The position numbers and the translations under genes are program-made. Source: an uncultured Dorea sp. (GTDB lineage Bacteria > Bacillota > Clostridia > Lachnospirales > Lachnospiraceae). From it: 64,000 nt of DNA. The stretch lies in assembly GCA_910588745.1 (NCBI GenBank), contig CAJURK010000003.1, forward strand, positions 11,660 to 75,659, written 5' to 3'. Below the pieces are notes generated by a model. The model was given only the letters and a program-made list of their open reading frames with translations, was not told the DNA's origin and made no database searches. This document shows positions 4,157 to 53,851 of the stretch, piece by piece (within the stretch, counting starts at the first letter, position 1; every line of letters begins with the position of its first letter).

Positions 4157-4219
4157 GTTTTCCGTCCTCCCAAATACGAATACGTTGTTGCAGGAATCTT
4201 GAGATTCGCCTTTTAGCCC

Positions 4220-4248
4220 AAAAGGGTATCAGACTAAGGCTGATACCC
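4220..4248 (-). terminator. Candidate intrinsic terminator or attenuating hairpin between rfbD and rfbC
   Basis: Minus strand reads GGGTATCAG-CCTTAGT-CTGATACCC (9 bp perfect stem, 7 nt loop) followed by TTTTGGG. A second weaker hairpin, GTAGTT...AACTAC, lies just upstream on the transcript. Confidence 0.5.
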
Positions 4249-4301
4249 TCCTGTGATGTAGTTCGGGCAATTTCCAAACTACATTTTATGCTTCTCATTC
4301 A

Positions 4302-5243: not shown

Positions 5244-5315
5244 CTGTATAACCTCCATTCATAAACTAAACCCTTTTTTCATATCCTGCTTTAACCTGCT
5301 TTCCGCGCGGTCTGT

Positions 5316-6335: not shown

Positions 6336-6403
6336 TTTAATTCTCCTTGTTCTTTATCATATTCTTTTTTATGCAGGAAATCCTGCATTTGCTGCAATAA
6401 TTC

Positions 6404-8213: not shown

Positions 8214-9312
8214 CAAATGCCCCCGCATTGTACATCTTCTGAATATTATGCACCCTTCTTAATTCTTTCGGCGTAGAATCTGCAAAGGACTTAATTCCAT
8301 CATTGCGAATCTGAAGATAACAATCCGGACGCAATAAATCATTCGTCATGATATCTGTATTATGCGTTGTGAGAATTGCCTGTGTATGAGGCAGTTTCTT
8401 TAGTTCTTCTATCACTGCCACTGCAAGATTGTTATGATAAAAAGCATCAAATTCATCAATAAAAAACAACGATACTTCTTCTAACCGAATTAACCAATAA
8501 AAAAATAATGCCAGAGAACAGGTTCCCCTAGAAGCAATCCGAAAAAAATCCACCAAATTTTTACCGTATTGGCAAAATATCCTATATTCTCCCTCAACTT
8601 CTCTGGCTGCTAACTGATAAGAAATCCCCAGCCCTTTCAAAAAATTTTGAAACTCTTCTATTTTTCCTCTCTTGATTATACCTTCCCCAACATTTTCTCC
8701 GCCAACCCAATATCCCTGATATTCATTTTTCTCCAATGAACTAAACCACAGCATATGTTCTACATAATTATAAAATTTTTTTAAAAGCCTGTTTTCTACG
8801 TTATCCTCATTTAGAAGCGTATTATTATATACATATTTCAAAAATGATATATTTTTTTCGGATAAGTCTGTGTTTAATGTTTCTGTACCGCTAAGTTTTG
8901 TCATCCCTTTGTTTGTCCTATAATTATAAGACAAAATCTGATTATCATTAATCCAGAGTTCTTCTTCTAGAAGAACCTGGGGAGCATTCTTTGTATATTT
9001 ATACTTTACCTCCCCTTCTTCAAACGAAAATACATACAAAAAATCAACATATTCTTCTATTGACTTCAAATTTTTATACAATCTGTAATTTGTCAAATGC
9101 CGTTGTTTATCCGTAAGGTGTAAAATAATATCAAATAATGCGTATCCAAGATTCGTCTTTCCACTTCCATTATCACCATAAATAAGCGCCGTTTTCAAAA
9201 TACCATTCCTTATTGCATCTTCATTAAATGGATAATTATTTACTCTGGACAGATCCAGGCAAATTCTCTTTTGAAAATTTTTAAAATTGGACACTTCAAA
9301 TTTTTTCAGCAT
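8206..9312 (-). CDS. AAA-family ATPase (AAA_15/AAA_21, ABC/SMC-like), AbiLi-like
   Basis: 368 aa. Walker A is YGDNGSGKTN, Walker B is LFFIDEFDAFYH, followed by ILTTHNTDIM. GAGGGAG RBS. Very AT-rich coding sequence. Confidence 0.75.
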   Translation of the reverse strand: MLKKFEVSNFKNFQKRICLDLSRVNNYPFNEDAIRNGILKTALIYGDNGSGKTNLGYALFDIILHLTDKQRHLTNYRLYKNLKSIEEYVDFLYVFSFEEGEVKYKYTKNAPQVLLEEELWINDNQILSYNYRTNKGMTKLSGTETLNTDLSEKNISFLKYVYNNTLLNEDNVENRLLKKFYNYVEHMLWFSSLEKNEYQGYWVGGENVGEGIIKRGKIEEFQNFLKGLGISYQLAAREVEGEYRIFCQYGKNLVDFFRIASRGTCSLALFFYWLIRLEEVSLFFIDEFDAFYHNNLAVAVIEELKKLPHTQAILTTHNTDIMTNDLLRPDCYLQIRNDGIKSFADSTPKELRRVHNIQKMYNAGAFDE

Positions 9313-9559: not shown

Positions 9560-11683
9560 CTACAGATACCATCTGGGATCCACTGGCACTTCGTTTACCC
9601 ACACTTCAAAATGCAAGTGTGGGCCTGAAGAAATTCCAGTGCTTCCTACTTCTGCTATCTTTGCTCCTACAAATACCGTATCTCCCTGCTTAACAACAAT
9701 TTTACTGCAGTGCTGGTATACTGTTGCAAGTCCGTTTCCATGATCTAAGATCACATAGTTCCCTCTTGCTCCGTTATAATCAACCTTCCTGACAGTTCCT
9801 GATGTTGCCGCAAGAATCGGCGTTCCGTAATACGCTGCATAATCGCGTCCTTTATGGTTTGTAGACGCGCCAGCTAACGGCGCGTCCCTGCCGCCGAATT
9901 CACTGCTGATATAGGAAGCGTCCGGACAGGGATTGGAAAGAATCCCGGCTCCTGATTCTCCAATATATGGACTTCCGTTTATATCAGGTCCTTTTTCCGT
10001 TTTGGCTACAATCTTTACCTGAATCGCTTTAACCGCCTTATCAGAATCCCTGGTTCCGGCAAAATTCCCATCCATGGTCCAGCCCAGCCAGCCGCGGCTT
10101 TCTATGTAAGTCCGATAATATACATTGTAAAATTTGCCGAGTGTATCCGTCAACTGAATCTGTATCGCTTCTAAGTACTTTCCTTCCTCCGGAAGACCCG
10201 CAAGCGCGCCCTGGCTTGTCCAGTCTGTCCAGTTGCCGCCTTCGCTGCTCGCCCGGTACTGAATTTCTCCCAAAGGAAGTTCCCTATTATTCGGATTCAA
10301 CGTGATTCCAAACGCAGACAATACCGGTTTATCCTCAGGGTTACCCAGAACTGCTCCGTTTCCTTCCGCCTGAATCTCTTTATCCGTATCGGTTCCCTGT
10401 GAACCGTCCCCTATACTTGTATTCTCCGAACTTCCGATCTGGGTTCTTCCATGCAGAATAAGATCCGAATCGGAAAACGGAACAAAATATGCCTGTCCCG
10501 ACATATCCGGCGCATCCAGCGCATTCTTATCCGCCAGCTTAATCTCAATTGCTTCCAGCCGTTTCGCAAATCCTTCCGTTCCGGCAGCTCCTCCATTTTT
10601 TGCCCAACCCATCCAGCCCATGGTCTGGCAATGTACCCGGTAATATACGTCGTAATGCTCTGCCAGCGGTCCTGTCAGACGGATGCGGATTGCTTCCAGA
10701 CGTTTCGCCTGGCCTGTGGTTCCGCTTACGGCTCCGTCTGCCGCCCACTCCTGCCAGCCGTAACTCTGTACATGGGTCTGGTACTCGATTCCGCCTTCGT
10801 AACCCAAATCGCTGGTATCATACAAATTAATCCGAATTCCTTCCAAGCGCTTTCCCTGTCCGGACGTTCCGCTTACAGCTCCATCTGATACCTGAGTCTG
10901 CCAGCCAAAACTTTGCACATGGGTCTGATATTGAATCTGGGGCGCATAATACGCCTTTTCCTGAGAACCTTCCGTACGCTCGGGCGGCGCCGCGCCTTTT
11001 TCTACCAAAACAATTACAATACTCTCCAGACGCTTGGCAAACGAAGCCGTTCCTGCTTTCTCCCCGTTGCATGCCCAGTCAAGCCACCCATAACTCTGGG
11101 CGTGTACCTGATAATAAATATCATAATGTTCTTTCAATTCTCCGGTTAGACGAATCTGTATTGCCTCCAGACGTTTCGCCTTAGCAGTAGTTCCGCTTAA
11201 GGCTCCATCCGCCGCCCACTCCTGCCAACCGTAACTCTGCACATGCGTTCTATACTCAATTCCGCCTTCGTACTCCGAATCGTCCACACTAAGCTCAATC
11301 GCCTCCAGGCGCTTCGCCTCTCCTGTAGTCCCGGAAGCCTCTCCGGCATGCTTCATCTCCTGCCAGCCGTGGGTCTGTACATGAACACGATAAGATAACT
11401 CCGGCGGCGTCTTTGCTTCTGTATCCCCCGCCTCATTCTCCCGGTTGATTTCTTCAGGAACTTCCTCTTCCTGAATTTCCGGAACTTCTTCTGCTTCGTC
11501 CGCCGGCGCTTCCTCCTCCGGCATTACGAATGTATCTTCCTCCGTATCCATGGTTCCTTCTGTTCCCGCAACACTTTCTTCTGTCCCGGCAGAAACCGCC
11601 GTCTCCTCTTCTGCCTTCACCGTCACCGGAGCGCCTGCAAGAAGCGCCGCCGCAAGAAAACATGCTAATACTCTTTTCTTCAT
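9560..11683 (-). CDS. Secreted ChW-repeat protein with a C-terminal M23 (LytM-type) metallopeptidase domain
   Basis: Signal peptide MKKRVLACFLAAALLAGAPVTVKA, then an acidic linker. About 8 ChW repeats follow (YR.HVQ..GWQ...G..AGT.G.AKRLEAI.I.L). C-terminus has HKGRDYAA...GSTGISSGPHLHFEV (HxxxD and HxH). Start chosen at ATG 11681-11683 (AGGAG upstream); the track start at 11722 is also possible. Confidence 0.85.
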   Translation of the reverse strand: MKKRVLACFLAAALLAGAPVTVKAEEETAVSAGTEESVAGTEGTMDTEEDTFVMPEEEAPADEAEEVPEIQEEEVPEEINRENEAGDTEAKTPPELSYRVHVQTHGWQEMKHAGEASGTTGEAKRLEAIELSVDDSEYEGGIEYRTHVQSYGWQEWAADGALSGTTAKAKRLEAIQIRLTGELKEHYDIYYQVHAQSYGWLDWACNGEKAGTASFAKRLESIVIVLVEKGAAPPERTEGSQEKAYYAPQIQYQTHVQSFGWQTQVSDGAVSGTSGQGKRLEGIRINLYDTSDLGYEGGIEYQTHVQSYGWQEWAADGAVSGTTGQAKRLEAIRIRLTGPLAEHYDVYYRVHCQTMGWMGWAKNGGAAGTEGFAKRLEAIEIKLADKNALDAPDMSGQAYFVPFSDSDLILHGRTQIGSSENTSIGDGSQGTDTDKEIQAEGNGAVLGNPEDKPVLSAFGITLNPNNRELPLGEIQYRASSEGGNWTDWTSQGALAGLPEEGKYLEAIQIQLTDTLGKFYNVYYRTYIESRGWLGWTMDGNFAGTRDSDKAVKAIQVKIVAKTEKGPDINGSPYIGESGAGILSNPCPDASYISSEFGGRDAPLAGASTNHKGRDYAAYYGTPILAATSGTVRKVDYNGARGNYVILDHGNGLATVYQHCSKIVVKQGDTVFVGAKIAEVGSTGISSGPHLHFEVWVNEVPVDPRWYL

Positions 11684-11811
11684 CTTTTTCAGTCTCCTAT
11701 AAAAATAATTACTTCTCCGCACAGTACGTTACACATCTGCCTCCTGCAGAACCCTCTGTCTTCGCAGACCGCGCGCCGCTGCACAAAGTGTTTATTACAT
11801 AGACCATATTA

Positions 11812-13008
11812 TTATAACATAGTTGTCCCTGCAACACAAACAAAAATCCCCGCTTCCTTTGTTATGCGCAGTCCTTCTTCTGTTTTCTTCTTTACAAAAT
11901 TCCGGAATTCACTATACCGGTTCAGAAGATATTGTCCTTGATTCCCGTGGCAGGACAACACATAGGCAATCAACGGTTCCGGATCAGTAACCAACAGCGA
12001 ATCCTCATACTGCCGCCAGCCGGTCTCGGAAAAATATGGATTGAGTATCTCCGCTCCGTTTTCCATCCCGAACCGTTCATACAAACGCTTCGCGGACAAC
12101 GCGATTTTCTCGTCAAAATTCTGAACAAGCCTGCTGATCTCCTTCATATGCCCCCTTCCGTAAGTCCCGCAGATAAAGCGTCCGCCGTTCTTTAATACTC
12201 TTCTTACCTCACCGCAGACTTTTCCGATATCTTCACAGTAAAATAGCATATGATTCGCCGTTACCAGATCAAACATACCGTCTTCAAAAGGAAGTTCATG
12301 ACAGTCAAGCGCCTGAAATTCAAACCGTTTATCCTGATTCCCGATCTTACGTCTGGCATCCCTTAGCATTCCTTCCGAAATGTCCGTCAGCGTAATACTG
12401 ACTTTTTCCGGAAGCAGCCGCAGGTTCTCTTTCCAAAGCTCTCCGTCCCCGCATCCAAGTTCTAACACCCTCATCCCGGAACAAAGTTCCATCTGTTCAT
12501 AAATCCAAGGAAACCATCCCTGTTTGTTCTGGGAATACAAGCTGTGGAGCTGGATTCTGGCAGAAATATTCGACGCATCCCGATACTGATTTTTTAAACT
12601 CTTCTCCATACCGGTCAGATGGATCAGGTTCAGCATACTGCTCCAGTCAATAATCTTCTCATTTTCAATTGTTTCCGCTGTATTTTGAATCGCCTGCTCC
12701 ACAAGCTGCATCTGTTCAATACGGTCTCTGACCAGTTTTAGCTGAATATGAAGCGAATCCAGCATAAAATGATAATCCACGTCGTCAATCGTCAGTTCCC
12801 TGATATCATCCAGTGAAAAGCCAAGATATTTCAGCAGCAAAATCTGCTGAAGCTTAGCAAAATCCTCCTCCGTATAAAACCGCGCCCCCGCTTCTGTTAC
12901 AAGCGAGGGCTTTAGAATATTTTGTTTGTCATAATATCGAATCGTCCGCAGCGTCACCCCCGCCATACGGGCAAACTCACCAGACGAATAATACCCTTTC
13001 TTTTTCAT
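11812..13008 (-). CDS. MerR-family HTH regulator fused to a class I SAM-dependent methyltransferase
   Basis: N-terminal YSSGEFARMAGVTLRTIRYYDKQNILKPS is a MerR HTH. The central VLELGCGDGELW is SAM motif I, followed by DLVTANHMLFY. The ATG overlaps the upstream stop (ATGA at 13005-13008). Confidence 0.8.
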   Translation of the reverse strand: MKKKGYYSSGEFARMAGVTLRTIRYYDKQNILKPSLVTEAGARFYTEEDFAKLQQILLLKYLGFSLDDIRELTIDDVDYHFMLDSLHIQLKLVRDRIEQMQLVEQAIQNTAETIENEKIIDWSSMLNLIHLTGMEKSLKNQYRDASNISARIQLHSLYSQNKQGWFPWIYEQMELCSGMRVLELGCGDGELWKENLRLLPEKVSITLTDISEGMLRDARRKIGNQDKRFEFQALDCHELPFEDGMFDLVTANHMLFYCEDIGKVCGEVRRVLKNGGRFICGTYGRGHMKEISRLVQNFDEKIALSAKRLYERFGMENGAEILNPYFSETGWRQYEDSLLVTDPEPLIAYVLSCHGNQGQYLLNRYSEFRNFVKKKTEEGLRITKEAGIFVCVAGTTML

Positions 13009-13967
13009 TTTAGGATTTCCCCTAACTTTCTGCTGAATGTTTCCGCCTGATCCTCGTACATATGTCCCTCATAATCCGAAAATCCGCCCACAGTTCTGTC
13101 AAATCCTTCTATTTCTATTTTGTCAAAATTGTAGTACGCAATCTCCTTATCTTCCAAATATTCACGAAAATAAGTGTCCGCTCCTTCAAAGTTATCCTTA
13201 TACTTTTCCCTGGTCTCATTCGGAACGGGGGTTGTAATCACGATCAATTCAATTCCCTTCTCCTCGCAGAGACTGACAAGCTTTTCAAAATACCGAACCG
13301 ATTTTTCCTTCAGTTCCTCTTCCTTCCACACCCCCGGAACTTCTTCACATTTTGGGCGTTCCAGCCTATGAATACTTACCGTACCGCCTTCTCCATAACT
13401 CTGCAATTCACTGTCATAAAAAGAATCTTCATGATTCAGATACGCCCTGTCAAATCTGGAACAGAACATTTCCGGCGCCTTCTTCATTCCCTGCCGGTAC
13501 ACATACCAGGGAAACAGCGCCGTCCGAAAATCCTCTTTCATCATCTTCGCCGCAAAATATTCCAGCTTCACCGGCGACCAGGGCAGTTCCTCATATACAG
13601 CCGCATAATCTGGTCCCGGAGAAACTTCCGTCACCCAGTATCCCGGATCCAGCTCATAGATCACCCTCTCCGGGCTTTTCTTTCTGCACAACTCTTTGAT
13701 GATAAAATAACTGTCTATGGGATACTCCCCTCCCAGGCACAGATTAATGCTCTTCCTTCCGGTTACCTTATCTACCGTATCCGGCCGGATCCCCGCCTTC
13801 CCGTGGGAGGTTCCGATAAATACATCCTCATAATGATCCTTTCTCATATGATACACATCATTCCGGAAAAAATTATGAGGTTTCAGCGCCAGCAAAAGAA
13901 CCTTGTTGATACAGATTACCAGCAGCCAAAATAAGATTATCCGGACAATTCGTCTAAAACTGCGCAT
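13005..13967 (-). CDS. Membrane-anchored extracytoplasmic protein, DltD-like / SGNH-like partner of the MBOAT (function tentative)
   Basis: 320 aa with an N-terminal signal anchor IVRIILFWLLVICINKVLLLAL. Candidate nucleophile block FIGTSHG and a C-terminal DYEGH. Positioned as DltD is in dlt operons and overlaps the MBOAT gene by 14 nt. Confidence 0.5.
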   Translation of the reverse strand: MRSFRRIVRIILFWLLVICINKVLLLALKPHNFFRNDVYHMRKDHYEDVFIGTSHGKAGIRPDTVDKVTGRKSINLCLGGEYPIDSYFIIKELCRKKSPERVIYELDPGYWVTEVSPGPDYAAVYEELPWSPVKLEYFAAKMMKEDFRTALFPWYVYRQGMKKAPEMFCSRFDRAYLNHEDSFYDSELQSYGEGGTVSIHRLERPKCEEVPGVWKEEELKEKSVRYFEKLVSLCEEKGIELIVITTPVPNETREKYKDNFEGADTYFREYLEDKEIAYYNFDKIEIEGFDRTVGGFSDYEGHMYEDQAETFSRKLGEILK

Positions 13968-15486
13968 AAATAAAACCTCCTGTCGAATCCGGCGGCTGTC
14001 CTAACATCGGAATGGAAAAAAGCAGCAAAAGATACACCGCCCACTTAAACATCCAAGGTCTCGCCGCAAGAGCATTCTGTATACTGATTCCCTTTTCCTG
14101 CACAAAACTGACCGCAAATACTACTCCGCAGCCGACAGCCAGAATCAAAAGCGCCAGTACCGTATAAGTGGTTCCGGCCGTTCCCACATGGACTTCCAAA
14201 AGCTCCCCCAAAGAAAAGCAGGTAACCGCATTCTTCATCATTGCCAACGCCTGTGGTATCGTATCTGCACGGTCAAAAAACCAACTGATATTTACCAGCA
14301 CAAATGTCCTGATAATCTGAAATATCTTCCATCCCTTCGATCTGTCGTTCACATGACAGACGCTCTTTAACTTCTGGTAATTCTTAGCCATCAAACCGCT
14401 GAACGCAATAATCAAACCGTTATACAGACCATATACAATAAATTTCCATGCGGGGCCATGCCAGATTCCTACTGCAAAGAACACCACAAGATTCGATACG
14501 CAAATCGGCATCACCCTGCCGTAGGTTCTTCCGAATACCTTCTTACAAAATCTTTTGAACCGCCCCATCGCCCGGGAAAGCGAAAGCGGATAAAAAAGAT
14601 AGTCTTTCATCCAGGTTCCCAGCGTAATATGCCACCGATGCCAAAAGTCCGTAATCGATACGGCAAAAAAAGGCCTTTTAAAATTCTCATCCAGTTCAAT
14701 GCCAAACAGGACGGAAACTCCGATAACCACGTCCATCCCGCCGGAGAAATCCCCATATAGCTGAGCCGTATAAGCCAGTACTCCAAATAATGCAATTCCC
14801 GGATAAGACTGATATTCATCAAAAGCCGCAGCCACAAAAACTGCAGCCGTCTCCGCAACTACCAACTTCTTAAAAAATCCCCAGAGAATCCGAAGCGCTC
14901 CCTTTTCTATTCGAGCAGAATCAAACCTGTGCGGTTCATAGAACTGACGCGCCAGCCGTGAATACCGTCCGATCGGTCCCTGCAGTATCTGCGGAAAAAA
15001 TGACACGAATAATGCGAACCGGAACAAATTGCGCTCCGGTTCGCACCGTTTCCAATAAACATCCATAATATACCCGGCAGATTGAAACGTATAGAACGAT
15101 ATTCCAAGAGGCAGCAGGAAATTCTGAAAACGAAACTCTGTGTGCAGCAGCAGATTCAGATTGCCAATTGCAAAATTGGTATACTTCAGAACTGCAAGCA
15201 GCCCAAAAACAAGGAGCAGCGCCAAAACCAGCGCCCTTCTCCTGCCTTTAGCACTCATTGATTTCACTTCGCCAGCCTGGCCTTCTCCCTGGCTAACCAG
15301 CAGCGCGGCTCCATAGGTCACCAGTGTTGTATACCCTATAAAAATAAGGTACACAAGACCTGAGGACGCATAATAAACATAGCTGACCCCCAGAAGCCAT
15401 ATCCACTGGTACCGACCGGGAATCAGATAATACACAGCCAGCGCCGCAAACACAAATATCAGAAATTCCATAGAAATCAGCGACAT
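13954..15486 (-). CDS. MBOAT-family membrane O-acyltransferase (DltB/AlgI-like)
   Basis: 510 aa, polytopic. Conserved FWHRWHITLGTWMKDYLFYPL and GIWHG histidine motifs. Confidence 0.85.
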   Translation of the reverse strand: MSLISMEFLIFVFAALAVYYLIPGRYQWIWLLGVSYVYYASSGLVYLIFIGYTTLVTYGAALLVSQGEGQAGEVKSMSAKGRRRALVLALLLVFGLLAVLKYTNFAIGNLNLLLHTEFRFQNFLLPLGISFYTFQSAGYIMDVYWKRCEPERNLFRFALFVSFFPQILQGPIGRYSRLARQFYEPHRFDSARIEKGALRILWGFFKKLVVAETAAVFVAAAFDEYQSYPGIALFGVLAYTAQLYGDFSGGMDVVIGVSVLFGIELDENFKRPFFAVSITDFWHRWHITLGTWMKDYLFYPLSLSRAMGRFKRFCKKVFGRTYGRVMPICVSNLVVFFAVGIWHGPAWKFIVYGLYNGLIIAFSGLMAKNYQKLKSVCHVNDRSKGWKIFQIIRTFVLVNISWFFDRADTIPQALAMMKNAVTCFSLGELLEVHVGTAGTTYTVLALLILAVGCGVVFAVSFVQEKGISIQNALAARPWMFKWAVYLLLLFSIPMLGQPPDSTGGFIYAQF

Positions 15487-15505
15487 GATCCTTCCGCCTC
15501 TTTTC

Positions 15506-15739
15506 CTAAGATTCGCTTTTTCGTAATCTCTGAATCATCTTCCACAATGCTTCCGCCGAATTAAAATTATCCGGAATAATCTCTGCCGGAGTCAGTCTAA
15601 CCCCAAACTCTTCTTCAATCTCTCCAACAATAGAAAGAATCGCAAAAGAATCCAAAATCTCATCATCAATCAGCGACTTGCAATTCTCAAAATCTGCGTC
15701 CGGAACAATCTCCTCAAGAATTTCCATTAACTTGTCCAT
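15506..15739 (-). CDS. Acyl/aminoacyl carrier protein (DltC-like)
   Basis: MDKLMEILEEIVPD...LDSFAILSIVGEIEEEFGV, with the phosphopantetheine serine in DSF. Start set at ATG 15737-15739 (GGGGGA 7 nt upstream); the longer track ORF lacks an RBS. Confidence 0.8.
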   Translation of the reverse strand: MDKLMEILEEIVPDADFENCKSLIDDEILDSFAILSIVGEIEEEFGVRLTPAEIIPDNFNSAEALWKMIQRLRKSES

Positions 15740-15770
15740 CTTTGTATCCCCCTTAACCTTAAATATTGTA

Positions 15771-15799
15771 ATTTTAACATCCATAACCCCTGCCGTCAA
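15771..15799 (-). promoter_or_regulatory. Candidate internal sigma-A-type promoter upstream of the carrier protein gene
   Basis: Minus strand shows TTGACG (15794-15799), a 17 nt spacer, and TAAAAT (15771-15776). It lies inside the 155 nt AT-rich gap between the decarboxylase and carrier protein genes. Confidence 0.35.
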
Positions 15800-15894
15800 A
15801 CAGGATCAAACCATTTACTATTATATCTATAATCTTCCAGAAAACAATTGTGCTTATAAAAACTTAATTTTTTCTTAACATCTTTTTAATAATT

Positions 15895-17130
15895 TTACTC
15901 TTGCTCCGCCTGGTTTATTATGCATGTTCTGCGCGCCCCTCTGATCGTCTGAATTCCTTCTTTCTCCGTATAGAAAAATATCTGCGGAAGGTCGCGGCTC
16001 AAAAACAAGCTCATTCCTTCCGTTACCGAATAGGCTCCCGTCCGTTCAAATACAAGAACATCTCCGATTTCCGGCGATACAACCGGAAGCTGTTTTACAA
16101 TAACATCGCTGACTGTACACAGCGAGCCGCAGATGTTCCAGCATTCTTGTTCCTTTTGGCCATCTCTGATCTCATCTGCTCTTCTGCATCTCTGTGCAGC
16201 CTCCCCGGATTCTCCCCTGCGGATTACTGTAACGCGGGGTATTTTCATGCCCATCATCTGCCCATAATAATTCAAATGGTGGATTCCTCCGTCTGCAATA
16301 CAATAATTCTGTCCGCAGTTTACCTTTTTATCAACAATTTCAGTCAGATAATATCCGCAGTACGCCGCTATATACCGTCCCATTTCCAGCGTAATTTCTC
16401 CCCGAAACCTCATCTGTCCCAGCGTCTCGGCAAACCAGTCCAAAAGCTCCTTGTCATTCTGTTCTCTGTCGCTTGTAAAATAAGGAACTGAAAAGCCGGG
16501 ACCATATTCAAGATGCCGAATCTGAATTCCCGTTTCTTTCGCAATTCTCAGAATCAGCTCGTCCAGCAGATCAATCTCCCGCTCTATCCTGTCGCGCTTC
16601 TTTTTCTGCGTCCCGGAATAATACTGCAGCCCCTGAAGCTCCACATGAGGATACTCTTTTCTGCGGGCAAACAATTCGAGTACTTCCTCTTGATCCACTC
16701 CGAACTGATTGCCGCTGCTCACCCGAACCAGCGCCCGGATAACCAAATTCTTTTCCGCCGCGCATTCTTCAAGAATTGTCAGATGCCGAATGGATTCAAT
16801 CGTGAATGTCCCCTTCCCGTCATAAGTCCCCAACGCATACCTGATATCCTCCCGCGCTTTATTCACGCCGGAAAGCACAATCTGTTCCATCGGGATCCCT
16901 GCTTTCTCACAGATAGAAAATTCCCCCGGTGAACAGACCTCGTAACAGTCGATTGTACCCAAAATCGGCCGGATCAGGAATGGATTCGCCTTCATCGCAT
17001 AACAAATGCTTACCCGTTTCCCCATATGTTTCTGAATCATCCGTATCCGTTCGCACAGCATATCTGCATCAAACACATACGCAGGCGTCGAATATTTCTC
17101 GGCGACTCCCTTTAATACTTCATAAGTCAT
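15895..17130 (-). CDS. Fold-type III PLP-dependent decarboxylase (Orn/DAP/Arg decarboxylase family 2)
   Basis: 411 aa. TPAYVFD...ICYAMKANPF (PLP-lysine motif), a HLEYGPG-type barrel, and C-terminal GAYSVTEGMSLFLS. The ATG overlaps the upstream stop (ATGA at 17127-17130). Confidence 0.8.
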   Translation of the reverse strand: MTYEVLKGVAEKYSTPAYVFDADMLCERIRMIQKHMGKRVSICYAMKANPFLIRPILGTIDCYEVCSPGEFSICEKAGIPMEQIVLSGVNKAREDIRYALGTYDGKGTFTIESIRHLTILEECAAEKNLVIRALVRVSSGNQFGVDQEEVLELFARRKEYPHVELQGLQYYSGTQKKKRDRIEREIDLLDELILRIAKETGIQIRHLEYGPGFSVPYFTSDREQNDKELLDWFAETLGQMRFRGEITLEMGRYIAAYCGYYLTEIVDKKVNCGQNYCIADGGIHHLNYYGQMMGMKIPRVTVIRRGESGEAAQRCRRADEIRDGQKEQECWNICGSLCTVSDVIVKQLPVVSPEIGDVLVFERTGAYSVTEGMSLFLSRDLPQIFFYTEKEGIQTIRGARRTCIINQAEQE

Positions 17131-18662
17131 TTACAATCCTCCAGACATTCTTCCGTTAACCTTCTGCGGTCAATCTTTCCGTTTTTTGTAAGCGGAAATT
17201 CCTCAACCCTGCAAAATTTATTCGGAATCATAAATCCCGGCAGAACCTGTCCCATCCTGCGGACTGCCTGCTTCTTGTCAATACCGCCCTTGTAGAAAGC
17301 GACAATCTTATTGCTGTCTTCATCGTATATGCAGCATGCCCGAATAATCTCTTTCATCCCCTCCATGACAGCTTCAATCTCTCCAAGTTCAATCCGATGA
17401 CCCATGTGCTTGATCTGAAAATCCTTCCTGGACGCAAAATACAGCTCTCCGTCATGCCCGTAATACGCCATATCTCCCGTTCGGTAAATCGGCTCTATCC
17501 AGCTTGTATTCAAAGGATTCTGAACAAATACCCCGGCCGTCTGTTCCGGATTCCGATAATATCCCAAAGACAACGCGGTTCCGGATACGCACAATTCCCC
17601 TTTTACCTCCGGTTCACAAATCTCCCGATTCTCCTCATCCAGAAGAAATACCTTTTCATTCGGAAACGGCCTGCCTATGGGAATACTTTCTCCCGGTCCA
17701 AATTCCCGGTTCACAATGTAATACGTACAGTTGCAGGTGATTTCCGTAGGCCCGTATACATTTACATATAAGGCGTCCGGAATATGACGCCTCCATATAT
17801 TCAGATGCTTTACCGGCATTACCTCGCCGCTGAAGATCACCCTTTTTATCTGCTTCGGAATTTTATAATCAAATCCGTTCAGCGTTGATATCATACATAA
17901 CGCCGACACGGCCCATATCAGAGTCGTTATGTTCTTCTCTTCCAAATAATCCAAAAGCTTAGATGGAAATGAAAACAGTTTCTTGGGAATGATCCGAACC
18001 GTCGCGCCTGTTTTTAAAGCGGAATATATATCCTTAACCGACACGTCAAAATCAAAAGGCGCCTGATTTCCAATCACATCCTCGCTGCAAATCCCAAACA
18101 TCTCTGTAAAATCCCCAATAAAATCAATGACAGATCTATGGCTCACCAGAACCCCCTTTGGTATTCCGGTAGATCCGGATGTAAAAATGGCATAGAGCGG
18201 ATGGGTATCCAAATGCCGCTTTCTGATACCGTCCAGCAGACGCCCTTGCTTTTCCCGGTCAGAACTTCTGCTTCCCTGCAGCGCTTCTCCAATCTGAATT
18301 ACTTCTCCTTGAAACTCCAACAACTTCAGACGTTTCTCATATGCAGAATCTGTGATGATTACCTTTGCGTCAAGCAGCGTTAAAACCTGTTTCAAACGCT
18401 CCGGCGGAAGCTTCGGCTCCAGCAGCGTATAAAAACATCCCGCATACACTGCGCCCATAAACGCGTATACCGCATTTACGCTTTTTTCCATAAAGACCGG
18501 AATCGGACTCTCCGGAACCACCCTCTCCGCCAGAAAAGCCCCGATTCTTCTGCTCCCATCCCGCAATTCGGAATATGTGCAGAAAGCTGTCTCATCTGCA
18601 AAGGCTATTTTATCCGGAAATTTTCCGGCAGACTCCTCCAAATACTCCAAAATGTTCCTCAT
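17127..18662 (-). CDS. DltA-like adenylating enzyme (amino acid--carrier protein ligase, ANL superfamily)
   Basis: 511 aa. AIFTSGSTGIPKGVLVSH, YGPTE, YRTGDMAYYGHDGELYFASRKDFQIKHMGHRIELGEIE, and a terminal K in LTKNGKIDRR. Length and N-terminus closely resemble DltA. Confidence 0.85.
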   Translation of the reverse strand: MRNILEYLEESAGKFPDKIAFADETAFCTYSELRDGSRRIGAFLAERVVPESPIPVFMEKSVNAVYAFMGAVYAGCFYTLLEPKLPPERLKQVLTLLDAKVIITDSAYEKRLKLLEFQGEVIQIGEALQGSRSSDREKQGRLLDGIRKRHLDTHPLYAIFTSGSTGIPKGVLVSHRSVIDFIGDFTEMFGICSEDVIGNQAPFDFDVSVKDIYSALKTGATVRIIPKKLFSFPSKLLDYLEEKNITTLIWAVSALCMISTLNGFDYKIPKQIKRVIFSGEVMPVKHLNIWRRHIPDALYVNVYGPTEITCNCTYYIVNREFGPGESIPIGRPFPNEKVFLLDEENREICEPEVKGELCVSGTALSLGYYRNPEQTAGVFVQNPLNTSWIEPIYRTGDMAYYGHDGELYFASRKDFQIKHMGHRIELGEIEAVMEGMKEIIRACCIYDEDSNKIVAFYKGGIDKKQAVRRMGQVLPGFMIPNKFCRVEEFPLTKNGKIDRRRLTEECLEDCK

Positions 18663-18701: not shown

Positions 18702-19301
18702 CTATTTAAACAGCCTTGCCAGCCATTTCATAAATAATACAACATATAAGAGAAAACACAACGTTACAATAAATGTTTCCGCATCGAACCGGTGTGTAAC
18801 TGCGCGAAGAGCCAGCGTCCCTTCCGCAGCCTTCCCTTCCACCGACAGCGGCGCGGCTTCGCTCGCTCCGGGAACAGCGTACACCTGCACTCCTGCGTCT
18901 TCCCCGCATTTTTCCACGGTAAGCCGAAACGAATAGGTCTTTCCTTTACAGCCTTCCACCGAATCAAATTTCAACGGAAAGAATTTTCCTGGCTTTAGAT
19001 CATTCAGCGTCCTTGTCCCTTCTGCAGCTTTCCCACCGTCCTCGTCCGTCAGCACAAAGGAGATCTCCGCATCCCCAATATCTCCGGACGCGGACATCTT
19101 AACGTTCACACTGTCCAGCACGTCTTCTTCCGCCAAAAACTCCTGCTCCAGTACGTCTCCTTCTCCCAGGCTCACCATCGCACATGCTTCTTTATCAACC
19201 TTCTCATCGTAAACTGCATGATTCTTATCAATTACAGAATACACTCCTGCCAGAGCAGCCATAATACAAAAAAAGACCGCTCCTTTTACCCTACTTTTCA
19301 T
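18702..19301 (-). CDS. Hypothetical protein with N- and C-terminal hydrophobic helices
   Basis: 199 aa. N-terminal GAVFFCIMAALAGVYSVI and C-terminal FIVTLCFLLYVVLFMKWL flank a roughly 150 aa acidic, beta-rich segment. No motif recognised. Confidence 0.4.
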   Translation of the reverse strand: MKSRVKGAVFFCIMAALAGVYSVIDKNHAVYDEKVDKEACAMVSLGEGDVLEQEFLAEEDVLDSVNVKMSASGDIGDAEISFVLTDEDGGKAAEGTRTLNDLKPGKFFPLKFDSVEGCKGKTYSFRLTVEKCGEDAGVQVYAVPGASEAAPLSVEGKAAEGTLALRAVTHRFDAETFIVTLCFLLYVVLFMKWLARLFK

Positions 19302-19321: not shown

Positions 19322-20059
19322 TTAGTAAGAGGTCTTATAGATTTCCGTTACTTCCCCGGCTTCTCCAAACATTTTCATGTTCCCTTTTTCCAGCCACACG
19401 ATCTTGTTGCAAAGCTGGGCTACCTGATCAATACTGTGAGACACAAATAAAAGCGTAGTTCCCGCATCCAGCATCTCCTGGATCCGTCTCTGGCACTTCT
19501 CCTGAAACCGGAAATCTCCTACCGACAGCACCTCGTCGCAAATCAGAATATCCGGTATTCCCACCGTTGCGATAGCAAACGCAAGCCTCGAAACCATACC
19601 GGACGAGAAATTCTTTACCGGAACGTCAATAAATTCCCGAAGCTCTGAAAATTCTACAATATCTTCATAACTTCGTTCCATTTCCTCATGGGAACGTCCC
19701 ATCAACGCTCCGTTCAGAAAAATATTTTCACCTGCCGTCAGATCAAAATCAAAACCCGCTCCAAGTTCAATCAGAGGCGCTACCTCCCCCCGCACGGCAA
19801 CCGAGCCTTTCGTAGGCTTTAACACCCCGGCAATAATTTTCAACATGGTACTTTTACCGCTGCCGTTTAGTCCGATCAGCCCCAGCGCATCCCCTTTCCT
19901 AACATGAAAAGAAACATCTTTCAGAGCCCAGAACTCATTCGTCGATATCTGACTCTTAATTGTCTTAATAAAATACTCTTTCAGGCTGTCTACCCGCTCC
20001 GACGCCAGCCTGAACTTCATCGACACCTGATCTACGCTGATAATATCTGTATTTTCCAT
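19322..20059 (-). CDS. Polysaccharide/teichoic-acid export ABC transporter, ATP-binding subunit (Wzt/TagH-like, short form)
   Basis: 245 aa. Walker A is GLNGSGKST, the signature is FSSGMVSRLAFA, and Walker B is ILICDEVLSVGD. Confidence 0.9.
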   Translation of the reverse strand: MENTDIISVDQVSMKFRLASERVDSLKEYFIKTIKSQISTNEFWALKDVSFHVRKGDALGLIGLNGSGKSTMLKIIAGVLKPTKGSVAVRGEVAPLIELGAGFDFDLTAGENIFLNGALMGRSHEEMERSYEDIVEFSELREFIDVPVKNFSSGMVSRLAFAIATVGIPDILICDEVLSVGDFRFQEKCQRRIQEMLDAGTTLLFVSHSIDQVAQLCNKIVWLEKGNMKMFGEAGEVTEIYKTSY

Positions 20060-20071
20060 CTCGTTCTGCTC

Positions 20072-20914
20072 CTATATATCCAGAATAAAGGTATCCTGTC
20101 TTTTATAAAACACATACAACCCCAGAGCCATAACCGCCGCAACCTCCACGAATGCCAGAAGCAGCGAACCAACGCCCGGAATCCGGTTATTCAGCATAAT
20201 ATCCCGGAACATCATCAGGATATTCGTAATTGGATTGATTAATACGATCGGCTCCAGCCACTCCGGCAATATGGACATAGGGTAAATGACCGGCGTCAGA
20301 TACATCAGCGCCGTTACAAATACCGAATACAGATGTTCAATATCCCGGAACTTTACTGTAACTGCCGATAGGATCAACCCAGTCCCCAATGAAAAAAACA
20401 CAATACAAAGCAGCGGTATCGGAGCGAGCAGTACTGTATAATGCAGTTCCACCCTCATCGCAAGCATCACAAAAATCAACGCTGTAAAAGACGCAAGCAG
20501 ATTAATCGAACTGGAAAATACCCGGGAAAGAACAAACATGTATTTCGGAACATAAATCTTCTTAATCAGCGGCCCGTTCATAATGATCGCCCCCATCGCG
20601 TTTGTAGTCGATTCCGAGAAAAAATTAAAAATCAACTGTCCGCTTAATAAGTAGACCGGAAAGTATTCAATGTCGAATTTAAACAGGTTTGAGAATACAA
20701 CCGATAATACAATCATCATAAACAGCGGATTCAGAATCGTCCAGAATACTCCAAGAATTGATTTTCTATATTTTGTTTTAATATCTCTTGTAATAAGCTC
20801 GTTCAGTAACGGTCTGAATTTCTTAAAATTTGCAATATACGCCGACACCGTTCTTCCTCCATCTGGAATTCTAATTTGGTACAGTATAACATCATTGACA
20901 AATTTTGACAACAA
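20072..20914 (-). CDS. ABC-2 type polysaccharide export permease (Wzm/TagG-like)
   Basis: 280 aa. LITRDIKTKYRKSILGVFWTILNPL is the ABC-2 N-terminal signature, followed by six hydrophobic segments. Confidence 0.85.
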   Translation of the reverse strand: MLSKFVNDVILYQIRIPDGGRTVSAYIANFKKFRPLLNELITRDIKTKYRKSILGVFWTILNPLFMMIVLSVVFSNLFKFDIEYFPVYLLSGQLIFNFFSESTTNAMGAIIMNGPLIKKIYVPKYMFVLSRVFSSSINLLASFTALIFVMLAMRVELHYTVLLAPIPLLCIVFFSLGTGLILSAVTVKFRDIEHLYSVFVTALMYLTPVIYPMSILPEWLEPIVLINPITNILMMFRDIMLNNRIPGVGSLLLAFVEVAAVMALGLYVFYKRQDTFILDI

Positions 20915-39563: not shown

Positions 39564-39565
39564 TA

Positions 39566-52006: not shown

Positions 52007-53851
52007 TTATTTCACAATCCCTATTGTTTTTCCTACAAAGTACTGTTCTCCGTCTTCATCTACTACATAAGCATGAATCTGGTACTCCCCCTCTTTATAT
52101 CCAAAATTCGGAACGCTAATTTCCGCGCAGTAACGCTCGTCTTCCTGCCCCATACTGCTCATTTGGATCCACTGCATGTCGCTCTGGTCTTCTTTGGTCC
52201 ACACTGCCAGCAGCATAGAATTGATCCTCTTATCTAGATTCTTAAAATTGTGGACTTCCACCGCCATAATACCCGTACTGTAATCATACGTCCCTGCCGT
52301 CACTGCCGCTGTCACCAGTTTCCCAGCGTCATTAAGCATTGCGTCTTCCTCAAGTTCTAGGCTCGCCATATCCTCCAGGAATCGTGATCTTTTCCCTAAT
52401 TCTTCCTGTTCATTCTCCAGCCCAATTTCTTCTGCCAGGGTCGGCCTTCCGGAAAACAGATTCGTTCCCAGCCCCAGTCTGTCCCCTTCAATCCTTACTC
52501 CCATAGCTGCAAGAGTCGTCGGGAAATTATCAAATGTTGTATAAACTCTTTTCTTGTCACTCTTACATTCAGCCGCAGAATTGATATATGCCGCATACGT
52601 TTTTCTCTGGTATTCCTTATCAATATCCTCGCAGAAATCCTTGTCCATAGTAGGATGGTCGCCGCAAATTACTACCGTTGTGTTTTCATAGAAATCCTGC
52701 CTCTTTATCCAATCTAAAAATTTTGTAACCTGGGCGCTGGAACATGCCATGACATTTGCATACTGGTCATTCTCATATATATCCGGGCAAATATCACATA
52801 CATAACCATCCTCAAAATGCGTATCTACAGTCAGCATTGTAAAATTAAAAGGCTCCTCTTTACCTGCCAATTCAAGAAGCTTTCGTTTAGCAAACTCAAA
52901 CAGTTTCTTATCTTCATACCCCCACCATACTCGGTATTCCTCCGGTATCCACTCCTCCTCTGCCGCACGAACATAATCTATTATTTCATAATTCCCATGC
53001 TCCGTAAAATACAAACGTCTTCCCCCAAAAGTCGCATCTGAACCGACAAGCAACGTCTGCGAATATCCTGCCTGCCGCAGGATATCGCCAATCGTAATTG
53101 CCCCTGGAAAAAATGTTTCCTGCATATTCATATTATTCCCATCTACCGCTATATTTAAAGGAAGCCCTGCCGTCTGTCCAAACATCGCTCCCATTGTCCA
53201 GGTCGTCCCTACCAGTGAATATCCGCCATTCAGTTCTATGCCGTTCCCTGAAAAATCTTCGTTTTCCTGAGCGATTCTTGTCAGCTCTGGAATCACATTT
53301 TCATCGAAAGCGCCTCCGTTCTCACTATCCGCATAAGTCGTTTCCATAGATTCAAGGAATATGTATATCAGATTTCTTTTCTTCTCCGGAAAAGTAAGGG
53401 AAACATCCGCCGGACTAACATAATAGTCTTCTACAAAAGTCGAGTCAATGCCCTGGGATTTTACATAATTCCCTGCATCCAGCTCATTCCATGCCGTCCT
53501 GACATTTGAATAGGACGCGGTGACTGAAACTGCAATTCCAGCCGCCATCACAATATAATATCTCTTCTTCCCCCTCAGTCCCCAGAACACAAACATACAT
53601 GCCAGAAACAATACGATTGCGGGCGCTACGCATGTCCCCAGATATTCCATAATCATATCCGTACTGGTTCCGTCCAGCGAAGTAGAGAGATGATACACCA
53701 ATTCATCCATAGACAGATTGCTCCATGTATCAAACATCCACTGAATACTAAAATACAGCGCCGCTGCGCCAAACATCAGACACAGCGTCGCAGCTGTTCC
53801 TATGATTGTTAATACTTTCCCAACTACTTTCATTACTTTCTTGATTCTCAT
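52007..53851 (-). CDS. LtaS/MdoB-family (sulfatase-fold) phosphoglycerol transferase-like membrane protein with a C-terminal Bsp-like repeat
   Basis: 614 aa with N-terminal helices. Sulfatase-fold blocks are LIYIFLESMETTY, TWTMGAMFGQTAGLPL and VVICGDHP. The C-terminal LLAVWTKEDQSDMQWIQM...GEYQIHAYVVDEDGEQYFVG resembles the GBS Bsp-like repeat. Confidence 0.7.
   Translation of the reverse strand: MRIKKVMKVVGKVLTIIGTAATLCLMFGAAALYFSIQWMFDTWSNLSMDELVYHLSTSLDGTSTDMIMEYLGTCVAPAIVLFLACMFVFWGLRGKKRYYIVMAAGIAVSVTASYSNVRTAWNELDAGNYVKSQGIDSTFVEDYYVSPADVSLTFPEKKRNLIYIFLESMETTYADSENGGAFDENVIPELTRIAQENEDFSGNGIELNGGYSLVGTTWTMGAMFGQTAGLPLNIAVDGNNMNMQETFFPGAITIGDILRQAGYSQTLLVGSDATFGGRRLYFTEHGNYEIIDYVRAAEEEWIPEEYRVWWGYEDKKLFEFAKRKLLELAGKEEPFNFTMLTVDTHFEDGYVCDICPDIYENDQYANVMACSSAQVTKFLDWIKRQDFYENTTVVICGDHPTMDKDFCEDIDKEYQRKTYAAYINSAAECKSDKKRVYTTFDNFPTTLAAMGVRIEGDRLGLGTNLFSGRPTLAEEIGLENEQEELGKRSRFLEDMASLELEEDAMLNDAGKLVTAAVTAGTYDYSTGIMAVEVHNFKNLDKRINSMLLAVWTKEDQSDMQWIQMSSMGQEDERYCAEISVPNFGYKEGEYQIHAYVVDEDGEQYFVGKTIGIVK

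Follow-up and report, generated by a model that had tools for sequence, protein, structure and literature searches.

A conserved Lachnospiraceae gene cassette that may acylate a cell-envelope polymer by way of a carrier protein and a BtrK-type decarboxylase

Results

Five packed genes combine Dlt-like components with a decarboxylase

A 64,000-nt stretch of DNA from an uncultured Dorea sp. (contig CAJURK010000003.1), referred to here as the window, was analysed, and all coordinates are window positions. The subject of this work is a cassette of five packed genes on the minus strand at 13005-18662, which may constitute a carrier-protein-dependent acylation pathway of the cell envelope. An earlier interpretation made from the letters alone (the sequence-only reading) had described these genes as a Dlt-like operon with an inserted pyridoxal phosphate (PLP) decarboxylase, and all five open reading frames (ORFs) were found where it had placed them. 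The genes, with their predicted active sites, are listed below.

17127..18662 (-): stand-alone adenylating ligase of the nonribosomal peptide synthetase (NRPS) type, 511 aa (Pfam AMP-binding, E 3e-64)
15895..17130 (-): fold-type III PLP decarboxylase (Orn/DAP/Arg family, predicted BtrK type; DAP, diaminopimelate), 411 aa
16990-16992 (-): PLP Lys47 of the decarboxylase
15771..15799 (-): promoter-like site TTGACG-17-TAAAAT with extended TG (consensus scan, 10/12 matches)
15506..15739 (-): stand-alone aminoacyl carrier protein, 77 aa (PP-binding)
15647-15649 (-): phosphopantetheine-attachment Ser31 (LDSF) of the carrier
13954..15486 (-): membrane-bound O-acyltransferase (MBOAT), 510 aa (Pfam MBOAT, E 4.7e-17)
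14458-14460 (-): catalytic His343 (IWHGP) of the MBOAT
13957..13974 (-): FXYXXF acyl-shuttle motif F-I-Y-A-Q-F at the MBOAT C-terminus
13005..13967 (-): DltD-like SGNH-fold protein with an N-terminal membrane anchor, 320 aa (the fifth protein)
13806-13808 (-): Ser54 (GTSHG) of the fifth protein, putative triad
13062-13076 (-): Asp298 and His302 (DYEGH) of the fifth protein, putative triad

In agreement with the sequence-only reading, the ligase stop and the decarboxylase start overlap in an ATGA, the MBOAT and fifth genes share 14 nt (13954-13967), and the motifs YAMKANP, LDSFAIL, FIGTSHG and DYEGH were all present in the translations. The Pfam search that it had proposed was run and matched AMP-binding, Orn_Arg_deC_N together with Orn_DAP_Arg_deC, PP-binding and MBOAT. 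The promoter-like site sits in the 155 nt that separate the decarboxylase gene from the carrier gene; such sites occurred in the region at about the frequency expected from shuffled sequence, and this one could conceivably act as an internal promoter.

The gene set is conserved across related loci

A genome scan with the decarboxylase revealed relatives in at least 584 species genomes. Gene orders were compared in a census of 83 non-redundant loci. The best 80 relatives belonged to Lachnospiraceae (Blautia, Dorea, Faecalicatena, Sporofaciens, Lacrimispora, Enterocloster, Hungatella, Anaerocolumna, Butyrivibrio and Lachnospira) and to Merdibacter (Erysipelotrichaceae). An MBOAT gene was present in the same cluster at 72/83 loci, in five gene orders. 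The ligase and decarboxylase genes were adjacent in 77 loci with a median spacing of -4 nt, and in 72 loci the decarboxylase gene lay between the ligase and carrier genes, mostly overlapping the former. The median spacing of the MBOAT and fifth genes was -14 nt. Given the co-occurrence at 72/83 loci and the -4 nt median spacing, the linkage of the cassette genes is far beyond chance, and the survey that the sequence-only reading had suggested thus found the ligase-decarboxylase-carrier-MBOAT set strongly conserved. The arrangements were distributed as follows.

ligase-decarboxylase-carrier-MBOAT-fifth: 36 loci
ligase-decarboxylase-carrier-MBOAT, with a remote fifth-protein homolog or none detected: 12 loci
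MBOAT-fifth-ligase-decarboxylase-carrier: 9 loci
MBOAT-ligase-decarboxylase-carrier: 5 loci
ligase-decarboxylase-fifth-carrier-MBOAT (interleaved): 4 loci
loci without a ligase gene: 3
Lachnospira loci with the ligase-decarboxylase-carrier trio and no MBOAT found: 6 (four of them with about 8 kb on both sides)
contig-truncated loci or minor variants: 8

Ruminococcus gauvreauii and Anaerosacchariphilus have the five-gene set in isolation, surrounded by unrelated genes.

The Lachnospira trios without an MBOAT are located at L049:6455-10428, L053:6323-10427 and L061:6467-10421 (L numbers denote loci), and also in L058, L065 and L070. In L049, L053 and L061 the trio is followed by a Ser/Gly-rich protein of about 250 aa that ends in ...LYNQFT, ...TYNKYL or ...IYNRFL, and the protein of L049 showed a weak FliD_C match.

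The ligase lacks the D-alanine pocket of DltA

The ligase passed the cutoff of the amino acid adenylation model TIGR01733 AA-adenyl-dom (337 bits, cutoff 317) and missed those of both DltA equivalogs (TIGR01734, 285.8 bits, cutoff 559.85; NF003417, 288.7 bits, cutoff 476). A profile of the ligase family scored 324 bits for TycA, 293 for PheA, 282-286 for DltA and 218-243 for beta-aminoacyl-ACP (acyl carrier protein) synthetases. By overall similarity, the enzyme is best classified as a generic NRPS-type adenylation domain; the profile search showed no special affinity to the VinN-type beta-amino-acid clade, and VinN was not among the matches listed.

The specificity positions were placed by motif (A4 FDxS, GGE-type, YGPTE and A10 Lys). 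The resulting code in PheA numbering was D235 V236 K239 I278 I299 S301 V322 C330 N331 K517, with the A4 motif DVSVK at 18033-18047. Over 78 orthologs (52-72% identity) it read D-V-K-[I/V]-[L/I/M]-S-[L/V/I]-C-N-K, with D, V, K, S, C and N invariant. Alignments of five DltA structures from the PDB gave a DltA pocket with D-L-M at 235/236/239, Cys at 301 and T/V/A at 322/330/331. In DltA, the cavity for the D-alanine methyl group is formed by Leu197/Met200/Cys268, and Cys268 selects the enantiomer (PMC8972799). These residues align with Val207/Lys210/Ser278 of the ligase, which were invariant in the 78 orthologs; the pocket comparison that the sequence-only reading had called for thus shows the D-alanine cavity replaced by an invariant Val/Lys/Ser. 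The invariant pocket Lys points to a loaded substrate with an extra anionic group. If the substrate is indeed still anionic when it is loaded, then loading would precede decarboxylation.

The decarboxylase resembles BtrK rather than LysA

In Pfam, the decarboxylase matched Orn_Arg_deC_N (72.5 bits) and the C-terminal Orn_DAP_Arg_deC (42.1 bits), and it also matched Ala_racemase_N (41.8 bits). When the single sequence was compared with the PDB, BtrK ranked first at 106.6 bits and the best LysA reached 88.2; with a 20-sequence family profile, BtrK scored 162.5, 6knh 142.1 and the best LysA 130.9. The catalytic residues common to the decarboxylase family are kept, namely Lys47, the E-x-G-R motif, Cys338 and the G-A-Y motif. 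Moreover, K47, Y171, G210-P211-G212, E249, R252, C338, T339 and G365-A366-Y367 were invariant in the family alignment. Three sites that separate LysA from BtrK read as follows.

PLP-stacking His site: LysA CHIGSQ; BtrK VYTGTQ; cassette decarboxylase YYSGTQ (Tyr171 for His)
Residue after the active-site Cys: LysA Cys-Glu; BtrK Cys-Thr; cassette decarboxylase Cys338-Thr339
Segment after the D-x-G motif: LysA DAGMNDL; BtrK DGGMHHH; cassette decarboxylase DGGIHHL

The enzyme scored 169.3 bits against lysA TIGR01048, below the cutoff of 297.9, and its best NCBIfam match was TIGR03099 (exosortase-A-associated; 198.1 bits, below the cutoff of 478.45). It is therefore assigned, as far as its sequence allows, to the BtrK type and not to LysA. 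The analogy with BtrK had been drawn in the sequence-only reading, and it gains from the fact that BtrK is the closest solved structure and that BtrK-type active-site substitutions are present. The same reading had named a housekeeping LysA as the identity that would speak against it; within the 64-kb window, this identity was ruled out by the missed lysA cutoff, the replaced DAP-binding residues and BtrK as the top match.

Several members of the family carry the database name 'alanine racemase', and some are named diaminopimelate decarboxylase. The former NCBI label arises from the Ala_racemase_N match, which is weaker and overlaps the decarboxylase match. An alanine racemase was ruled out for this reason and by the presence of the C-terminal beta-domain of the decarboxylases; in addition, no racemase was found among the PDB matches in either the single-sequence or the family-profile search.

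The carrier protein is a small stand-alone PP-binding domain

The carrier start was assigned to the ATG that follows the Shine-Dalgarno sequence AAGGGGGA, giving 77 aa. The protein passed the cutoff of PP-binding PF00550 (24.2 bits, cutoff 20.8) and missed that of the DltC equivalog (27.6 bits, cutoff 68), and its best PDB matches were type II peptidyl carrier proteins, with DltC at about 24 bits. Residues S31, P56, N58, F59, N60 and S61 were invariant in 72/72 orthologs.

Residues 56-62, near the C-terminus, form a P-x-N-F-N-S-A motif, of which P, N, F, N and S are kept in 72/72. We do not recognise this motif from DltC, and it could be a docking surface for the decarboxylase or the MBOAT.

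The MBOAT carries a fused tyrosine-shuttle motif

The cassette MBOAT exceeds DltB by about 100 aa, and its last residues are ...GGFIYAQF. All 72/72 orthologous MBOATs end exactly in x-Y-x-x-[F/Y] (GGFIYAQF in 38, AKLIYAGF in 11, others in the remainder), and His343 and Tyr507 were invariant among them. FXYXXF has been described as an acyl-shuttle motif, whose Tyr receives the acyl group from the MBOAT and hands it on to the SGNH protein; it is located on the DltX microprotein in Dlt systems and is fused to the MBOAT on two extra transmembrane (TM) helices in PatA, AlgI and others (PMC12148441). Tyr507 is accordingly predicted from the sequence to be the acyl-Tyr carrier of the shuttle. A separate DltX was not found, as no small ORF of the cassette ends in FXYXXF; in the whole window, the ORFs with this ending were two MBOATs, one MBOAT remnant and one chance 28-aa ORF inside an MBOAT gene.

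The AlphaFold (AF2) model of the MBOAT, with a predicted local distance difference test score (pLDDT) of 77.5, contains helices at 442-464, 469-474 and 478-495 followed by a flexible tail. The extra C-terminal TM helices 442-464 and 478-495 agree with the description of PatA (PMC12148441). Foldseek returned DltB as the top match of the model (E 8e-12, target-normalised TM-score 0.73), and the sequence matches in the PDB were DltB only (92 bits, catalytic His aligned), DltB being the only bacterial MBOAT in the PDB. Against LTA_dltB TIGR04091 the protein reached 169.9 bits, below the cutoff of 375.

A second MBOAT gene was identified elsewhere in the window, paired with a gene for an SGNH protein.

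41868-43265 (-): second MBOAT, 465 aa, ending in NPFIYFRF
40516-41859 (-): AlgX-type SGNH protein paired with the second MBOAT

This pair (40516-43265) has no carrier protein nearby and resembles a classical O-acetylation pair of the acetyl-CoA type in a Wzx-type polysaccharide cluster; systems of that type with a fused shuttle 'lack a similar carrier protein' (PMC12148441). The window therefore encodes two different MBOAT/SGNH systems. The second MBOAT scored 143 bits against the DltB model (cassette MBOAT, 170) and 79 bits against DltB in the PDB (cassette MBOAT, 92). Because the acetyl-type MBOAT also matches the DltB model, the label 'DltB-like' given to the cassette protein in the sequence-only reading is not specific, and with its fused FXYXXF, which that reading had not noted, the cassette MBOAT is AlgI/PatA-like in predicted architecture.

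A 143-aa ORF at 58648-59079 (-) also has a ...NPFIYFRF tail like that of the second MBOAT and lies just upstream of the gene for an AlgX/DHHW protein (57210-58598). The two ORFs (57210-59079) look like the remnant of a third, degraded MBOAT/SGNH pair, of which the MBOAT C-terminus is left.

The fifth protein has a predicted DltD-like fold

The fifth protein matched no family in Pfam or NCBIfam. Its residues S54, D298 and H302 were invariant in a 42-sequence alignment. The AF2 model was confident (pLDDT 92.7, predicted TM-score 0.90) and contains an N-terminal TM helix. In a Foldseek search, the top matches of the model were the DltD structures 6o93, 6pfx, 7dxm and 3bma (E 3e-5 to 9e-5; query-normalised TM-score 0.47-0.52), followed by generic GDSL/SGNH hydrolases and PatB. 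The sequence-only reading had placed this protein in the DltD position, and the model, in matching DltD best, supports that placement at the level of predicted structure. In divergent lineages the MBOAT partners are remote homologs of the fifth protein (hhalign probability 98.4% and 97.8%), with a classical G-D-S block at the Ser54 column. PF27429 is annotated on some homologs, and one showed a sub-threshold DUF1574 match.

Flanking genes and the acceptor polymer

The polysaccharide setting that the sequence-only reading had described is present in the window, which contains rmlABCD, an ABC-2 transporter and many glycosyltransferase genes.

3548-7300: rmlABCD
19322-20914: ABC-2 transporter (exporter)
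52007..53851 (-): LtaS/OpgB-like, phosphoglycerol-transferase-like protein with a GBS_Bsp repeat; a possible accessory, not a proven part of the cassette

Other envelope-polymer genes around the cassette encode large GT1/GT2 enzymes, acyltransferase-3, LicD, a Wzx-type cluster and many ChW-repeat wall proteins. Between loci, the flanks of the cassette differ widely: when they were probed with 31 envelope proteins of the window, a polysaccharide-type neighbour was detected at only about 10/83 loci. On this count, the proposal that the cassette tracks polysaccharide loci was rejected. The cassette is an autonomous, portable module, and its adjacency to the rhamnose locus in the window is consequently no evidence for the acceptor, so that the rhamnose-containing polysaccharide named in the sequence-only reading is not upheld in that role.

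A different lead comes from recurrent neighbours. The protein encoded at 52007-53851 matched Pfam Sulfatase and GBS_Bsp-like domains and scored 160-170 bits against NCBIfam phosphoglycerol-transferase models, below cutoff. In the window, 33 kb separate its gene from the cassette; in five related genomes, the closest relatives of the window, its orthologs (57-62% identity) adjoin the cassette, either within about 3.5 kb (L007:13069-14904, L008:15420-17243, L009:12950-14782 and L014:13160-14992) or directly upstream of the ligase gene (L013:4626-6470). In six loci, a nucleotidyltransferase of about 300 aa with generic family matches only (galU, 36 bits) and no counterpart in the window is encoded directly beside the cassette (L004:13981-14913, L006:5313-6224, L007:12027-12950, L008:13978-14913, L009:12022-12924 and L014:12084-12992). 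A TarI-like cytidylyltransferase is encoded near the cassette in the Merdibacter loci. As a lead only, such neighbours would suggest an acceptor bearing a polyol phosphate, and possibly the acceptor is a glycerol-phosphate-bearing polymer rather than a rhamnan.

Two immediate neighbours were considered as further members of the cassette and rejected. The 199-aa protein encoded upstream (18702-19301) was absent from all related loci, and the MerR-methyltransferase gene downstream (11812-13008) adjoins the cassette in one other locus only (L072). The latter, on the minus strand, encodes a MerR-type helix-turn-helix domain fused to a class I S-adenosylmethionine-dependent methyltransferase (398 aa), and its start overlaps the fifth-gene stop by 4 nt.

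Other features of the window

Five large secreted proteins with 7-9 ChW repeats are encoded on the minus strand at 9560-11722, 47560-51882, 54062-56311, 59089-61086 and 61245-63671. Their fused domains are an M23 peptidase, an alpha-L-rhamnosidase, a YkuD L,D-transpeptidase, a transglutaminase-like domain and a GH25 muramidase; the ChW-anchored rhamnosidase is notable in that it adjoins a rhamnose-polymer locus. A candidate anti-phage pair at 7446-9312 (-), inserted between rmlA and the ChW-M23 peptidase gene, consists of PDC-M12 A (8206-9312, 475 bits, AbiL-like ATPase) and PDC-M12 B (7446-8228, 241 bits), with a G+C content of 0.36 vs about 0.45-0.5 nearby. The block at 28000-44000, which holds glycosyltransferase, LicD, IspD-like and second-MBOAT genes, has a G+C content of 0.34-0.40 vs 0.43-0.53 on both flanks, which suggests that this polysaccharide cluster was acquired separately.

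Discussion

A proposed load, decarboxylate and export pathway

We favour the reading, with a probability of about 0.6, that the cassette encodes a self-contained carrier-protein-dependent pathway which acylates a cell-envelope polymer and is distinct from D-alanylation. The ligase would activate an amino acid with a second carboxylate, most likely L-aspartate through its side-chain carboxyl and with glutamate as the main alternative, and load it onto the 77-aa holo-carrier. The BtrK-type decarboxylase would then strip the free alpha-carboxyl of the tethered residue, yielding beta-alanyl-S-carrier (or 4-aminobutyryl-S-carrier from glutamate). At the cytoplasmic face the MBOAT would take the acyl group from the carrier and pass it via His343 to its own Tyr507 on the outer face, and the DltD-like SGNH protein would receive it on Ser54 and esterify a hydroxyl of a surface glycopolymer. 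The end product would be a cationic ester chemically unlike D-alanine.

There is established precedent for Orn/DAP/Arg-family decarboxylases whose only substrates are amino acids tethered to a carrier (PMC11350588, PMC7183216, PMC11284099). BtrK converts Glu to 4-aminobutyryl on the BtrI carrier protein (PMC11350588, PMC7183216, PMC11284099), and CtaF, from a Clostridium-group organism, converts Asp to beta-alanyl on its carrier and refuses free aspartate (PMC7183216). VinO and FlvO work with the AMP-forming loaders VinN and FlvN, which attach 3-methyl-Asp or Asp by the side-chain carboxyl (PMC11284099, PMC11350588), and the VinN/VinL/VinO, FlvN/L/O and CtaD/E/F systems yield a beta-aminoacyl-S-carrier from Asp-type substrates (PMC11284099, PMC11350588, PMC7183216). 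For the cassette, these systems are better precedents than the BtrK analogy offered by the sequence-only reading. We infer the order of loading first and decarboxylation second from the behaviour of CtaF and VinO, the BtrK-type active site and the cationic pocket of the ligase.

The group attached to the surface polymer is probably positively charged and other than D-alanine, most likely beta-alanine. On general chemical grounds, an unprotected 4-aminobutyryl thioester or ester would be expected to cyclise to a five-membered lactam, and a beta-alanyl thioester would not readily do so. In the butirosin pathway, the 4-aminobutyryl-S-carrier is capped with a gamma-glutamyl group (PMC11350588, PMC7183216). 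As the cassette contains no capping enzyme, beta-alanyl is favoured over 4-aminobutyryl; the identification of the group as beta-alanine is nevertheless tentative, and we hold it with less than even confidence.

The core of what the sequence-only reading proposed, namely loading, decarboxylation and export of a group other than D-alanine, finds computational support in the BtrK match, the non-DltA pocket and the conserved gene set; its rhamnose-polymer acceptor and its 'DltB-like' label are not supported. Neither a D-alanine pocket nor a lack of conserved gene order, which it had named as counter-evidence, was seen (pocket Val/Lys/Ser; 72/83 loci).

Several points weigh against our interpretation. 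The substrate, the timing of decarboxylation and the acceptor are all deduced from computation, and synteny alone suggests that the carrier, and not acyl-CoA, would be the acyl donor of the MBOAT. The cassette MBOAT is 31% identical to the second MBOAT (203 bits) vs 92 bits to DltB. The ligase appears to fall outside the VinN-type clade, which leaves activation of the side-chain carboxyl without specific support, and its retained Asp235 would also be compatible with ordinary alpha-carboxyl activation. In a comparison by hand with Stachelhaus codes, its code is nearest to Ser (6/10) or Glu (4/10), neither of which is convincing. At the six Lachnospira loci the trio occurs without an MBOAT, in four of them within 8 kb on both sides, and the other two end about 1 kb downstream. 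Furthermore, L030, L038 and L042 (decarboxylase at 8001 in each) have the order decarboxylase-carrier-MBOAT-fifth and no ligase gene within 17 kb, which implies a loader of another kind or one whose gene lies elsewhere.

Alternative explanations

The most probable alternative is that the decarboxylase is a supply enzyme: it would convert an untethered amino acid (for example meso-DAP into lysine, or a D-amino acid into an amine acid), the ligase would load the product, and the remainder would work as in Dlt. The enzyme does belong to the DAP-decarboxylase clade, keeps K47, E-x-G-R, Cys338 and G-A-Y and matches NCBIfam lysA at 169 bits, and the tight coupling to the ligase gene would fit a supply role equally well. 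We nevertheless consider this unlikely, because the lysA match is below cutoff (169 vs 298 bits), the Glu beside the active-site Cys and the PLP-stacking His of LysA are replaced as in BtrK, and BtrK outranks every LysA, also when the family profile is used. In addition, the invariant Lys239 of the ligase pocket suggests a substrate that is still acidic, the family member CtaF refuses the free acid (PMC7183216), and direct loading of lysine would make the decarboxylase redundant.

Alternatively, two modules may simply travel together, the MBOAT/SGNH pair O-acetylating a polymer from acetyl-CoA in the manner of PatA/PatB or AlgI/AlgJ and the ligase-decarboxylase-carrier trio feeding another product. 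The trio without an MBOAT in Lachnospira would be explained in this way, as would the closer relation of the cassette MBOAT to the acetyl-type MBOAT of the window than to DltB, and the fused-shuttle architecture has so far been described for users of acyl-CoA only (PMC12148441). Such a chance companionship is hard to reconcile with an MBOAT in the cluster at 72/83 loci in five orders, including the interleaved decarboxylase-fifth-carrier-MBOAT, and with isolated five-gene sets in unrelated contexts, which lack any condensation, transacylase or thioesterase gene that could otherwise use the acyl-carrier. Moreover, the SGNH partner is nearer to DltD than to AlgX or PatB, and a separate acetyl-type MBOAT/AlgX pair already exists in the window. 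This explanation is therefore regarded as improbable.

An ordinary dlt operon, with the PLP enzyme as an alanine racemase that provides the D-alanine, is very improbable: the Ala_racemase_N match (41.8 bits), the database entries named 'alanine racemase' and the DltA and DltB models among the best NCBIfam matches speak for it, but both decarboxylase domains outscore the racemase match (72.5 and 42.1 bits), the C-terminal beta-domain is present, the close PDB relatives are all decarboxylases, the three methyl-cavity residues for D-alanine, including the enantiomer-selecting Cys, are all changed and invariant in 78 orthologs, and the scores against the DltA, DltB and DltC equivalogs are far below cutoff. 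That a housekeeping LysA lies in a dlt-like operon by chance is scarcely credible, as membership of the Orn/DAP/Arg family and the entries named diaminopimelate decarboxylase are set against a gene that stands between those of ligase and carrier in 72 loci, usually overlapping the ligase gene, a missed LysA cutoff and DAP-recognition residues that are not conserved.

Significance

On the carrier-dependent reading, gut Lachnospiraceae (Blautia, Dorea, Faecalicatena, Enterocloster, Lacrimispora and others) would esterify an envelope glycopolymer with beta-alanyl (or 4-aminobutyryl) groups that arise by decarboxylation of aspartate (or glutamate) on a carrier, and their MBOAT would be the first with a fused tyrosine shuttle to be fed by a carrier and not by acyl-CoA. 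We give this full statement nearly even odds. If it is true, it describes a surface-charge modification so far unrecognised and parallel to D-alanylation. In Gram-positive bacteria, surface charge, resistance to cationic peptides and antibiotics, control of autolysins and host immune signalling are governed by the D-alanylation of teichoic acids, which is also a drug target. Some of the most abundant human gut commensals would then use an unrecognised chemistry to the same end, one that bears on colonisation, resistance to host peptides and immune recognition of wall polymers. A carrier-fed MBOAT with a fused shuttle would also make the type of donor a module independent of the shuttle architecture, linking two systems treated as distinct, and thiotemplated decarboxylation, so far known from antibiotic pathways, would extend to primary envelope biology. 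The cassette is widespread in dominant gut commensals, and each step can be tested with five small soluble or membrane proteins. A description of such a cassette was not found in the searchable literature, the coverage of which is incomplete, and none of the results listed by a further search concerned Lachnospiraceae.

Comparison with known systems

The cassette shares with Dlt a stand-alone ligase and small carrier, an MBOAT with a catalytic His, the FXYXXF motif and a tight operon, and its anchored protein with a predicted SGNH fold matches DltD best in structure. It differs from Dlt in the PLP decarboxylase between ligase and carrier, in the ligase pocket (Val/Lys/Ser vs Leu/Met/Cys in DltA) and in having no DltX, as the MBOAT itself bears the shuttle motif, on two extra helices. 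Scores against every Dlt equivalog model are far below cutoff. Sequence identity to DltD is only 10-15% for the fifth protein, whose triad spacing is D-x-x-x-H rather than the D-x-x-H of DltD.

With PatA/PatB, AlgI/AlgJ/AlgX and WssH-type systems, the cassette has in common an MBOAT (about 470-510 aa) whose C-terminal part adds two TM helices and ends in FXYXXF, and an extracytoplasmic SGNH-type partner. Those systems use acyl-CoA without a carrier (PMC12148441), whereas the cassette cluster encodes a ligase, a carrier and a decarboxylase, and its SGNH partner resembles DltD, not AlgX or PatB.

A ligase and fold-type III PLP decarboxylase pair also occurs in exosortase A (XrtA/PEP-CTERM) exopolysaccharide systems, where TIGR03098 is likewise an AMP-forming ligase and TIGR03099 the decarboxylase. 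The scores of the cassette proteins are far below the cutoffs (190 vs 592.35 and 198.1 vs 478.45), and the taxonomic range and partner genes are unlike. To our knowledge, the XrtA-associated pair is itself uncharacterised, and it permits no functional transfer.

In BtrI/BtrJ/BtrK, CtaD/CtaE/CtaF, VinNLO and FlvNLO, as in the cassette, a loader, a stand-alone carrier and an Orn/DAP/Arg-family decarboxylase are encoded together. BtrK is the closest solved structure and has active-site substitutions in common with the cassette decarboxylase. BtrJ and CtaD are ATP-grasp enzymes, whereas the cassette loader is an adenylating enzyme; VinN and FlvN are AMP-forming loaders as in the cassette, but by overall similarity the cassette ligase lies outside the VinN-type beta-amino-acid clade. 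The product of thiotemplated decarboxylation in BtrIJK, CtaDEF, VinNLO and FlvNLO feeds natural-product assembly lines (PMC11350588, PMC7183216, PMC11284099). Unlike in these butirosin, closthioamide and macrolactam pathways, the product of the cassette apparently goes to a membrane MBOAT/SGNH exporter and not to a polyketide synthase, an NRPS or an aminoglycoside acyltransferase. The cassette is thus Dlt-like at its membrane end and BtrIJK/CtaDEF/VinNLO-like at its cytoplasmic end, with the fused-shuttle MBOAT of acetylation systems, and it probably represents a new combination of known parts that makes a new product.

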